Part shown: one piece after another, positions 15,001-18,000 of the stretch
Position numbering within the stretch: the stretch's first letter is position 1
How the letters are laid out: each line of letters begins with the position of its first letter
Assembly: GCA_963813705.1 (NCBI GenBank)
Contig: CAWFAH010000011.1
Coordinates: 454,341-518,340, forward strand
Direction of reading: 5' to 3'
Length of the DNA stretch: 64,000 nucleotides
From: an uncultured Chloroflexia bacterium
Lineage (GTDB): Bacteria; Chloroflexota; Limnocylindria; Limnocylindrales; CSP1-4
Position numbers: made by a program

Positions 15001-18000
15001 CGTTCCGGGCCATGGCCGCGTCGGGCACCACGACCGCGCTGATGTACGGGGCGGTCTTCGAGCCGAGCCTTGACGTCGCGTTCCGGGCGGCCGAGGCGCA
15101 CGGGATGCGGGCGATCATCGGCAAGGTCATGATGGATCGCCTGACCTACGACAGCCGGCTGCCGGCCGATCGGATCCTCGAGGTCAGCCTCCGCCAGTCG
15201 GCCGAGCTGTGCGAACGGTGGCACGGTCGCGATCGCGGGCGGCTCCAGTACGCCTTCACGCCCCGCTTCGCGGTGTCCTGCAGCGCGGACATGCTCCGCG
15301 AGTCGGCGACGCTCGCCCGCGAGACCGGGGCGTACTGGCAGACCCACCTGTCCGAGGACGCCAACGAGCTGCGCGAGGTGGCCCGGCTGTTCCCCGAGGC
15401 GCGCGACTACCTCGACGTCTACGACCGGGCCGGCGGCCTCGGCCCGCGGACGATCCTCGCCCATGCGATCCACCTCTCGTCGCGCGAGATCGACCGACTC
15501 GCGGTGTCCGGCAGCGCGGTGGCCCACTGCCCGGCCTCGAACTTCTTCCTCGCCTCGGGCGCGATGCCGCTCGCCCGCTACCGGGCGGCCGGGATCCGGG
15601 TCGGCCTCGGCTCGGATGTGGCGGCGGGACCGGAGCTGTCGATCTTCGCCAACATGCGCGCCGGGGCGTACATCCAGAACGGGCTGCGCGTGGTCCAGGG
15701 GCCGTCCGCGCCGCCGGGTCTCGGCCCGCTCGACTGGCTGCGCATGGGAACGCTCGACGGCGCACGGGCGCTGGGCCTCGACGCGCTGGTCGGTTCGATC
15801 GAGCCGGGCAAGGAGGCCGACCTCATCGCCGTCGACCCGCGCACGGTCGCGCCGGTCGCCGGGATCGACTCGGACGATCCGGACGAGATCATGTCCCGCC
15901 TCGCGTTCCGGCCCCACCCGTCGATGGTCCGCGCGGCCTGGGTCCGCGGCCGTCGCCTCGAGGGCCCCCCGGGCGTGGACGGCGACGCGTGAGCCCGTGG
16001 ACGTGGGCGGTGCCCGGGCCGTGGACGGTGCCCGTTCCTCGGCCGATGAACATCGGGCGTTCCAACGAGCGGCTCGGCACCGTTCCCCAGGCCGGCTCGT
16101 GGCCGGCGCCTCGGCCGATGAACACCGAGCGTTCCAACGAGCGGCTGGGCAGGTCGGATTCCGCCAGATGACGACCGTTGGAACCCCGGGTGTTCCGTTC
16201 GAGCGGGGAACGGTCCGGCGGGGGCCAGCTCGACCGTCCCAGCCGCCCATTCGAACGTGGCATGTTCATCGCTCGGGGGAGGATGTTCAGCCCTCAGAGA
16301 ACGACGAGCGCACTCGCCTCGGGGAGCTCACCCCGCGCGAGACGCCGCAGCACGATCCGGCCGTCGAGGGGGAAGCTGGCCCGGAGGTACTCCCGACCGA
16401 CGGTCAGCGCTCGTCGGTTCGCGGTCGTGTCGGCCACGAGCAGCATCACGTGCGCGACGCTCCCGTCCCGCCGCTTGGTCGCGATCTGGCGATCGAGCGC
16501 CTGCAGGTCGCGGAGCCGAGTCTCGGCCTCCACGGCGACCACGAGGCGGCCGAGACGAATGGTCGCGTCCCAGGCACGTGGATCCCGCGGGTCCGGGAGC
16601 GGGACCTCCGTTCGCCACTGGAGGCTCGACCCGAGCCGGGCTCGCAGACGGGCGAGCAGACGGACGTGGCCCTGGTCGCGGATCGGATCGCCGCCCAGGT
16701 ACGCGCGCACCGTGAGGTCGAGACCGACGGCAGCGCAGACACGGGACAGCAGCGCGACGCTGGCGCCCGGCTCGAGGCCGCGCTCGATGCGTCCGACCGT
16801 GACGTGGGACGTCCTCGCGGCGGCGCCAACGCCGGCCTGGCTCAGGCCGGCAGCGAGACGCGCCTCACGCACTTCTTCGCCGATGGCGACGAGGGCCCGA
16901 CGGGCCAGGCGGCTGCCGCGGTCGTAGTGACGTTCTCGCGTCGTCATGGATGTCGAGCATCCAACAATCCTCTTGCCCGGCGATCACCCTCCGGGATCGG
17001 CGACGGGCGTCGGCTCGGGGCGAGCGGAGCGATCGGGGCGGGCGGCGCGGTCGTCGATGGGCGTGGGCCGGGGCGAGCGGGACGATCGTCGACGGAGCCG
17101 GGCTCGGGCTGGGGCTGGGGATCGAGATCGGGCTCGGGCTCGGGATCGGGCTCGGGATCGGGGTCGGGCTCGGGCTCGGGCTCGGGATCGGGCTGGGGCT
17201 GGGGCTCGGGCTCGGGCCGGGGCTCGGGCTCGGGCGTCGACCCGGGACAATCACCTGATGGAGCCCGTGGACCTGCTCATCGAGGGCGGCACGATCGTCG
17301 ACGGAACCGGCGCGGCCGGGTTTTCCGGGGCGATCGCGGTCCGGGGGACAGCGCTCCAGGTCCTGCGCGGCGCCCGCGCGGACACCGACGCCAGCCGGCC
17401 GGACGCCACCGCGGGACTCCAGGCGCGGCGGCGGATCGACGCCAGCGGGCTGGTCGTGGCCCCGGGCTTCATCGACCTCCACAGCCACGGCGGGCTGACG
17501 ATCCTGGCCGAGCCGCGGCACGAGCCCAAGGTCCGCCAGGGCGTGACGACCGAGGTCATCGGCGTCGACGGCAACGCCTACGCGCCGTTCCGCAACCAGT
17601 CCGACCTCGATGACTTCGTCACCCTCAACGGCGGCCTGGACGGACGACCCGCGGGACTGGCCTACGACTGGCGGACCGTGGCCGACTACCTCGCCCGCTA
17701 CGACCGTGGCGTGGCGGTCAACATCGCCTACCTGGTCGGCAACTCGGCGCTCCGGATCGCGGCGGTCGGCTGGGACGAGGTGGCGGCCAGCCCGGCCCAG
17801 CTCGCCGACCAGCGCGCGCTCCTGCGCGAGGCGATGGAGGACGGGGCGTTCGGCATCTCGAGCGGGCTCGACTACCCGCCCGGCGCGTACGCCGACACGG
17901 ACGAGCTTGCGGCGCTCCTGAACGAGGCGGCACGCCTCGGCGGCTTCTATCACACCCATGTCCGCTACCCGCTCGGGGACGGCTTCCTCGATCCGTTCCG

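Follow-up and report, generated by a model that had tools for sequence, protein, structure and literature searches.

A degenerate G-rich hexamer array in the divergent control region of an XRE gene and an amidohydrolase gene from a Chloroflexota bacterium

The divergent gap and its repeats

The window analysed here is a stretch of 64,000 nucleotides, positions 454341–518340 of contig 11, in an assembly of an uncultured member of the Chloroflexota, a high-GC lineage without genetics so far. The genome surveyed is the 3.17 Mb assembly itself (GCA_963813705.1; 72% G+C, 11 contigs, 83% completeness). At the locus of interest, the gene order is guaD, an XRE-family gene on the minus strand, an amidohydrolase gene, and an aldo/keto reductase gene. 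The XRE-family HTH gene (16294–16947, minus strand, 217 aa; Pfam HTH_31/HTH_3) and the D-aminoacylase-like Amidohydro_3 gene (17258–18895, plus strand; by Pfam, with NCBIfam PRK09061 scoring below cut-off) diverge from a gap of 310 bp. These assignments agree with the regulator and the amidohydrolase named in an earlier, sequence-only reading of this DNA. Approximately 245 of the 310 bp are tandem-repeat DNA, as expected from that reading, which had described the gap as non-coding and built of repeats. The element under study is the hexamer array within this gap, a degenerate (CGGGCT)23 microsatellite at 17099–17236 with its G-rich strand on the plus strand.

The array has been delimited with Tandem Repeats Finder (TRF), a table of its units, and a list of its G-tracts. 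TRF reports one array (17099–17235, period 6, 22.8 copies, 85% matches) with a score of 183, which is the top TRF score in the window and belongs to the best period-6 array of the genome. Read in register, the array has 23 units with the consensus CGGGCT, 11 of which are exact; the variant units are GGGGCT (four), CGGGAT (three), and five singletons. The autocorrelation is strong at lags 6, 12, 18, and 24 (z = 11–13). With 12 of the 23 units off consensus, the array is interrupted every 1–3 units and is perfectly periodic for 23 bp at most. It contains 22 tracts of G3–4 separated by loops of 2–3 nt, apart from one gap of 9 nt, and 18 of the tracts are contiguous. Relative to the amidohydrolase ATG at 17258, the array spans −159 to −22, leaving 22 nt between its end and the start codon. 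The sequence-only reading had recognised the array but placed it at 17101–17232, with 22 hexamers ending 25 nt from the ATG. It had also counted the G-tracts and their loops correctly, with the exception of the 9-nt gap.

Directly adjoining the array is a second repeat, a tandem duplication of 2 × 54 bp on the plus strand (16992–17099; copies 16992–17045 and 17046–17099) identified by repeat search and global alignment. The two copies are ~77% identical with 2–3 indels, and their global alignment (z = 6.4) was equalled by none of 2000 shuffles. The direct repeat of ~30 bp noted earlier is real, but it is a part of this larger duplication. A decayed stretch of the hexamer array was considered as the source of the left part and was ruled out, since no period-6 signal is found in the duplication (lag-6 autocorrelation z = 0.5 over 16985–17098). 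A dispersed element was also ruled out; elsewhere in the genome, the 30-bp and 54-bp repeats have only chance matches of 13–22 nt.

The region of the array and the duplication is non-coding. The array is open in all six frames, but its unique neighbour (16948–17098) has a negative codon score in every frame, and no family in Pfam or NCBIfam matches the repeat reading frames. Likewise, Rfam gives no match at E ≤ 1 between 15900 and 17400. Four readings of the repeat have been rejected individually. An Arg-Ala N-terminal extension of the amidohydrolase (the amidohydrolase-phase frame RARD..., ORF 16946–18895; ORF, open reading frame) has a codon log-odds of −1.38 inside the array. The score of a 102-aa Gly-Leu ORF (16950–17258), +1.0 inside the array, is an artefact of the G+C content at third codon positions (GC3) of the repeat unit; the score is negative outside the array and the ORF has no family match. 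The minus-strand Glu-Pro frame lacks a start codon and uses the disfavoured GAT, and the Ser-Pro frame, also on the minus strand, is a shadow ORF of the kind common at high GC and runs antisense to the amidohydrolase. The earlier view of the region as non-coding is supported.

Translation of the repeat, either as the (Gly-Leu)n small ORF or as an Arg-Ala/Arg-Asp extension of the amidohydrolase, is thus highly improbable. In its favour, both frames are open, a crude gene finder called the Gly-Leu ORF at 17.5 (threshold 15), and the TGA of this ORF overlaps the amidohydrolase start as TGATG, a classic coupling arrangement. However, outside the repeat the Gly-Leu and Arg-Ala frames score −0.45 and −0.43, the favourable Gly-Leu score follows automatically from the repeat unit, and either ORF must begin no more than 3 nt from the divergent XRE start. 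Neither ORF has a counterpart in relatives, and the orthologues start at the position of 17258; tblastn alignments begin at residues 1–5 in 14 relatives, which supports 17258 as the amidohydrolase start. Other GGGCTC-type repeats, in this genome and in relatives, lie mostly inside long ORFs, where they encode PE/SP/TP (Pro-rich) linkers. For this reason they were dismissed as counterparts, and the locus studied here is the non-coding exception among them.

Promoter signals on either side of the array

A TANNNT hexamer ~12 nt before the start codon is the signature of leaderless sigma-70-type promoters (Zheng et al. 2011, PMC3160421), and the method of that work has been followed here for the 2536 predicted genes of the genome. 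The same positional signal is present genome-wide. Upstream of start codons, TANNNT is counted 140 times at a distance of 6 nt, 88 times at 7 nt, and 41 times at 8 nt, against a background of ~8 per position, a 17-fold enrichment at 6 nt, and only 37% of the genes have a motif resembling a Shine-Dalgarno (SD) sequence. The leaderless-mRNA signature of this genome is therefore strong. Its leaderless-type promoters have no conserved −35.

Upstream of the amidohydrolase, the −10-like hexamer GACAAT (17246–17251, plus strand) ends 6 nt before the ATG and 9 nt separate it from the end of the array. It has the A2 and T6 of the motif and a G two bases before it, and it spans −12 to −7, the modal leaderless distance. 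Between the array and the ATG there is no GGAG, GAGG, or AGGA. The gene thus combines an A2/T6 hexamer ending within 6–8 nt of its start with the absence of an SD sequence. Compared with the published TANNNT, the first base is G instead of T. Hexamers of the form GANNNT are enriched at the 6-nt distance (60 against a background of 23.5, or 2.6-fold), and those beginning with G make up 21% of such hexamers. GACAAT is probably a leaderless promoter of the amidohydrolase, which would place the transcription start site (TSS) at the start codon.

The genome-wide signature, the hexamer 6 nt before the ATG, and the lack of an SD sequence together make the array more likely to be upstream promoter DNA than RNA. 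It is reasonable to expect that the array belongs to the promoter region of the amidohydrolase and not to its 5′ untranslated region (5′-UTR). The option of an array carried in the 5′-UTR, raised by the sequence-only reading, is weakened by the same three observations.

On the other side of the gap, a conserved block (16948–16991, minus strand) has the same layout upstream of the XRE genes of relatives and is a putative XRE core promoter. In the sense of the XRE gene it consists of ATCGCC (16979–16984), 17 nt, GATGCT (16956–16961), 8 nt, and the ATG. The layout in relatives is an ATCGCC-like hexamer, ~17 nt, xAxxxT, 7–8 nt, and the start codon. Each core promoter would thus lie close against the start codon of its own gene, and both genes appear leaderless. 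A simple scan finds neither a sigma-70 consensus promoter nor an intrinsic terminator. A clustering of GATC (Dam-type) sites was also considered and set aside; the 310 bp contain 9 sites, but the genome has 11.7 per kb, and the gap ranks in the top 1.2% of windows while its part outside the array ranks only in the top 10%.

Relatives and the XRE segment

The search for relatives covered 19 species of the genus including this one, that is, 18 congeners. DNA homology with all 18 reaches into the gap no further than the starts of the XRE and amidohydrolase genes, and the hexamer array is present in none of them. The divergent XRE/amidohydrolase pair is found in 11 relatives with gaps of 127–795 bp; none of these gaps contains the array, and several have unrelated tandem repeats. 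Close relatives keep the pair without the array. The protein collection yielded two XRE relatives that are closer still. In the one whose XRE protein is 85% identical (aa), gene coordinates give a gap of 119 bp. In the other, at 82% (L044), the gap is ~101 bp, and it can be aligned only over the XRE-proximal 45 bp, covering the XRE core-promoter block and nothing beyond it. This comparison shows that the array is specific to this lineage. Since the gaps of the closest relatives measure ~101–119 bp and lack the array, the repeat DNA at 16992–17236 appears to be a recent addition to a control region otherwise of 100–120 bp. The regulatory importance given to the array by the sequence-only reading is weakened, since the array is missing in every one of the 18 congeners as well as in the nearest relatives with XRE.

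Tandem repeats of another kind occupy the corresponding gaps of L005, L010, L012, L006, L004, and L007, with units of ~60–70 nt and motifs resembling GTTCGAGCG.GCCACGCAC. Because relatives hold other tandem repeats there, the spacer between the XRE and amidohydrolase genes seems to gain repeats repeatedly, with a different sequence each time. In several congeners (L002, L003, L006, and L007), tblastn splits the amidohydrolase and guaD across frames, which suggests indel errors of long-read metagenome-assembled genomes (MAGs).

The XRE gene itself lies in a segment with features of its own. A perfect 12-bp direct repeat of the guaD/amidohydrolase junction, GAGCCCGTGGAC, has its left copy directly after the guaD stop codon (15991–16002, plus strand) and its right copy in codons 2–5 of the amidohydrolase (17261–17272, plus strand). 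The two copies bracket a 1258-bp XRE segment (16003–17260) which contains the array and whose right end supplies both GACAAT and the amidohydrolase ATG. In the nearest relative (G003, 93% nt identity), the guaD/amidohydrolase junction is uninterrupted and there is no XRE gene. Of 15 loci, 4 have no XRE at this junction. In G009 both positions carry a 14-bp duplication particular to that genome, and weaker duplications of 11–12 bp with a mismatch are found in G017 and G014; cross-genome controls reach at most 9. No direct repeats flank the XRE segment in G001, G002, and G004 (local scores 5–6). From these sequence comparisons, the segment resembles a cassette that was inserted here or that tends to be deleted precisely. 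The presence of the segment in some species of the genus and its absence from others would fit an array that is dispensable. The flanking 12-bp duplication and the presence or absence of XRE across the genus are probably a more interesting lead than the array.

Within the XRE protein, the HTH is the only part recognised; PDB matches cover the HTH alone, the C-terminal 130 aa have no assignment, and all NCBIfam matches are below cut-off. The protein has 522 homologues, mostly of 217 aa. Exact-protein look-ups with the XRE protein and with both versions of the amidohydrolase returned no identical record, and the closest relatives found in a metagenome scan are at no more than 64% identity. The sole XRE paralogue of the genome (47% aa identity; G000:C10:324847-325500, L043) is likewise flanked by repeat blocks, with ~4 tandem copies of a palindrome-containing unit of ~68 bp upstream and other short repeats downstream. 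On the 3′ side of the XRE gene, at 16037–16285, there are elements of ~40 bp of the form GAAC...GTTC, which are kept in the 82% XRE relative (L044:770-1027). Since only two further copies exist in the genome (G000:C10:154327-154424), these elements do not form a dispersed repetitive extragenic palindromic (REP) family; they may be operators.

Structure, origin, and described counterparts

As a motif, the array fits the definition of a G-quadruplex (G4) many times over on the plus strand, where a putative quadruplex sequence (PQS) is taken as at least four G3 tracts with loops of up to 7 nt. The G4 prediction proposed with the sequence-only reading gives a mean G4Hunter score of 1.48 (best 25-nt window 1.92). 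The array is also the longest G-tract run of the genome; its 18 contiguous tracts compare with no more than 6 in any other short-loop array, and only 34 short-loop arrays of at least four tracts exist genome-wide. The PQS of the genome number 401 against 1658 in a block shuffle, a depletion of ~4-fold, and their density in intergenic DNA is 3 times that in coding DNA. They have no strand bias upstream of genes (65 vs 69). As a structure, the array is less clear-cut. Its loops contain C, and GGGCUC pairs with itself through G-C and G-U, so that the predicted RNA fold is a hairpin of −115 kcal/mol (z = −4.6), which in ViennaRNA mostly persists even with G4 terms. The DNA hairpin is weak (z = −2.1). 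The earlier description as a textbook multi-G4 element therefore holds for the motif but goes too far for the fold.

This genome is generally prone to repeat expansion in its spacers, since 126 intergenic tandem arrays are found across divergent, tandem, and convergent gaps, at 0.30 per kb vs 0.09 per kb in coding DNA. One of these genomic repeats, a (CGGCT)16.6 pentanucleotide microsatellite of 92% purity (G000:C10:831344-831426), lies in a convergent gap beside 3 × 27-bp repeats; its sequence is akin to that of the hexamer unit, but it cannot form a G4.

The interpretation that we consider to have somewhat better than an even chance is that the array is a non-coding, lineage-specific microsatellite born by slippage, neutral or weakly modulatory, upstream of a leaderless promoter. 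An origin by slippage and a lack of function are the most likely account of it. Replication slippage would have produced the array, which together with the 2 × 54-bp duplication would have inflated the divergent control region from ~100–120 to 310 bp. The array would then lie between the two core promoters on the non-template strand of the amidohydrolase, untranslated and probably outside the amidohydrolase mRNA. Because the leaderless promoters of this genome lack a conserved −35, a repeat over the −35 region should be tolerable. The effect on expression would most likely be nil or mild, although, as spacer DNA, the array may adopt G4 or slipped structures if, as expected for DNA between divergent promoters, it is negatively supercoiled. 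The array is not a conserved regulatory device.

Several observations weigh against this neutral account. Of the 14 substitutions, a single one affects the GGG core (binomial P = 0.0009, assuming independent units), and five extend the tract to GGGG, which could reflect selection for G-tracts. The array is an extreme outlier in a G4-depleted genome, and it ends so close to the putative −10 that some promoter effect is plausible. The leaderless call itself is held with only modest confidence, given that a hexamer beginning with G is far less enriched than one beginning with T. With regard to the first point, the variant units have probably spread by slippage. Counted by mutation type, GGG-core changes are 1 of 6 (P ~0.11).

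The same substitution pattern, with G-tracts kept while loops vary, can be read as the mark of an element that functions at the DNA level, as a G4 or slipped structure, in the upstream region common to the amidohydrolase and XRE genes, and tunes or couples their transcription. The two divergent promoters would generate negative supercoiling, and this would drive the extrusion of G4s on the plus strand. The G4Hunter scores, the length of this PQS against the genomic depletion, the location between two divergent promoters, with the putative −10 just downstream, and the G4 formation in vitro of the G-rich simple sequence repeats (SSRs) of Xanthomonas and Nostoc (PMC4692102) are consistent with such an element. 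However, every relative lacks the array, including those at 82–85% XRE identity, the substitution statistic weakens if slippage has spread the variant units, loops with C favour a duplex or a hairpin, and promoter use of G4 leaves no genome-wide sign. We regard this element, and the supercoiling mechanism with it, as unlikely. A little less likely still is an amidohydrolase TSS upstream of the array, for example from GATCGT (17083–17088) or AACAAT (16963–16968), which would turn the array into a structured 5′-leader, either a long G-U/G-C hairpin or an RNA G4, controlling translation or mRNA stability. The RNA of 17090–17275 has the stable fold given above, NANNNT hexamers are present upstream of the array, and the 2.6-fold enrichment of GANNNT leaves another TSS a chance not far short of even. 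On the other hand, the resulting mRNA would have a leader without a ribosome-binding signal, the distance of the −10-like hexamer from the ATG is the modal one for leaderless genes, and the leader has no Rfam match and is unconserved in relatives. The duplications at the guaD/amidohydrolase junction allow a wider, and quite speculative, proposal in which the array is one of the modules of an XRE cassette of 1.26 kb. The cassette would insert into this junction or be excised from it, leaving behind 5–14-bp duplications of the junction sequence native to the lineage. Such a cassette would supply an outward leaderless promoter and a new amidohydrolase ATG, and the G-rich repeat would be a supercoil-sensitive G4 spacer insulating this promoter from that of XRE or coupling the two.

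The neutral account must also be set against a contingency locus, in which slipped-strand gain or loss of units switches or grades expression of the amidohydrolase or of XRE. The array does have the core-promoter/5′ position of such a locus, with a short unit in many copies directly upstream of a gene start, and the copy number of promoter SSRs is known to grade expression (PMC8262952, PMC12721329). It lacks the long uninterrupted tract; units as degenerate as these, interrupted every few units, argue against a classical phase-variation switch and weaken the slippage switch proposed in the sequence-only reading. The host is, moreover, a free-living soil bacterium and the target a catabolic enzyme, and we consider a contingency locus very unlikely. 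Finally, long-read metagenome assembly could have created the array as an artefact, or distorted its exact length and variant units. The assembly is MAG-like with its 11 contigs, and the assemblies of several congeners are frameshifted in the same genes. In this genome, however, the flanking genes are intact, and the variant units are irregular yet strictly 6-periodic, which is unusual for a collapse or a consensus error, leaving an artefact as the least probable of the explanations considered.

If the array is functionless, it is a clean example of fast tandem-repeat inflation, from ~100 to 310 bp since the 82–85% XRE relative, and a demonstration that such growth is tolerated by leaderless promoters lacking a conserved −35. 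If it acts, it provides a natural test case for the effects of G4 or slipped structures directly upstream of a leaderless promoter and between divergent genes.

Three described systems can be compared with the array. The hexanucleotide repeat (GGGGCC)n of C9orf72 has a hairpin/G4 duality (PMC4787773, as cited as ref. 43 in PMC7015867). Going by that citation, it resembles the array as a G-rich hexamer with C in the loop that can adopt a G4 or a G-C/G-U hairpin as DNA and RNA. The C9orf72 repeat is, however, eukaryotic, intronic, and disease-linked, and the likeness is one of physical chemistry only. The 7-bp repeats upstream of hmw1A and hmw2A in Haemophilus influenzae are promoter-proximal phase-variable SSRs (PMC8262952, PMC12721329). 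As in the array, a short-unit tandem repeat lies just upstream of a gene and its copy number could alter promoter geometry, but tracts of this type are perfect, demonstrably length-variable, and found in host-adapted pathogens, whereas the array is degenerate (23 bp in its longest perfect run).

The G-rich SSRs of Xanthomonas (GGGAATC) and Nostoc (GGGGA(C/T)T) form G-quadruplexes (Rehm et al. 2015, PMC4692102). They share with the array tandem units of 6–7 nt, each with a G3–4 tract, in up to ~26 units. Neither codes for protein or has a known function, both are found no further than 50 bp from an ORF border, and both fit the G4 motif. Measured against a class defined by at least four tandem units of 6–9 nt with a G3–4 tract, the array qualifies with its 23 units and 22 tracts. 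The SSRs of Xanthomonas and Nostoc are dispersed over ~90–190 loci per genome with a preference for four units (PMC4692102), whereas the array is a single locus; in place of a dispersed family with many loci enriched in non-coding DNA, this genome has the 34 short-loop arrays, of which the next largest has 6 tracts. Upstream of ORFs, the published SSRs for the most part occupy the antisense strand, and few of them lie between divergent genes (PMC4692102), while the array is on the sense strand between divergent genes. Its loops are C-rich and favour a hairpin, unlike those of the published SSRs (PMC4692102). The G4-forming SSR class of Xanthomonas and Nostoc is the closest described kind, and the array shares its unit design but not its dispersed family structure (PMC4692102).

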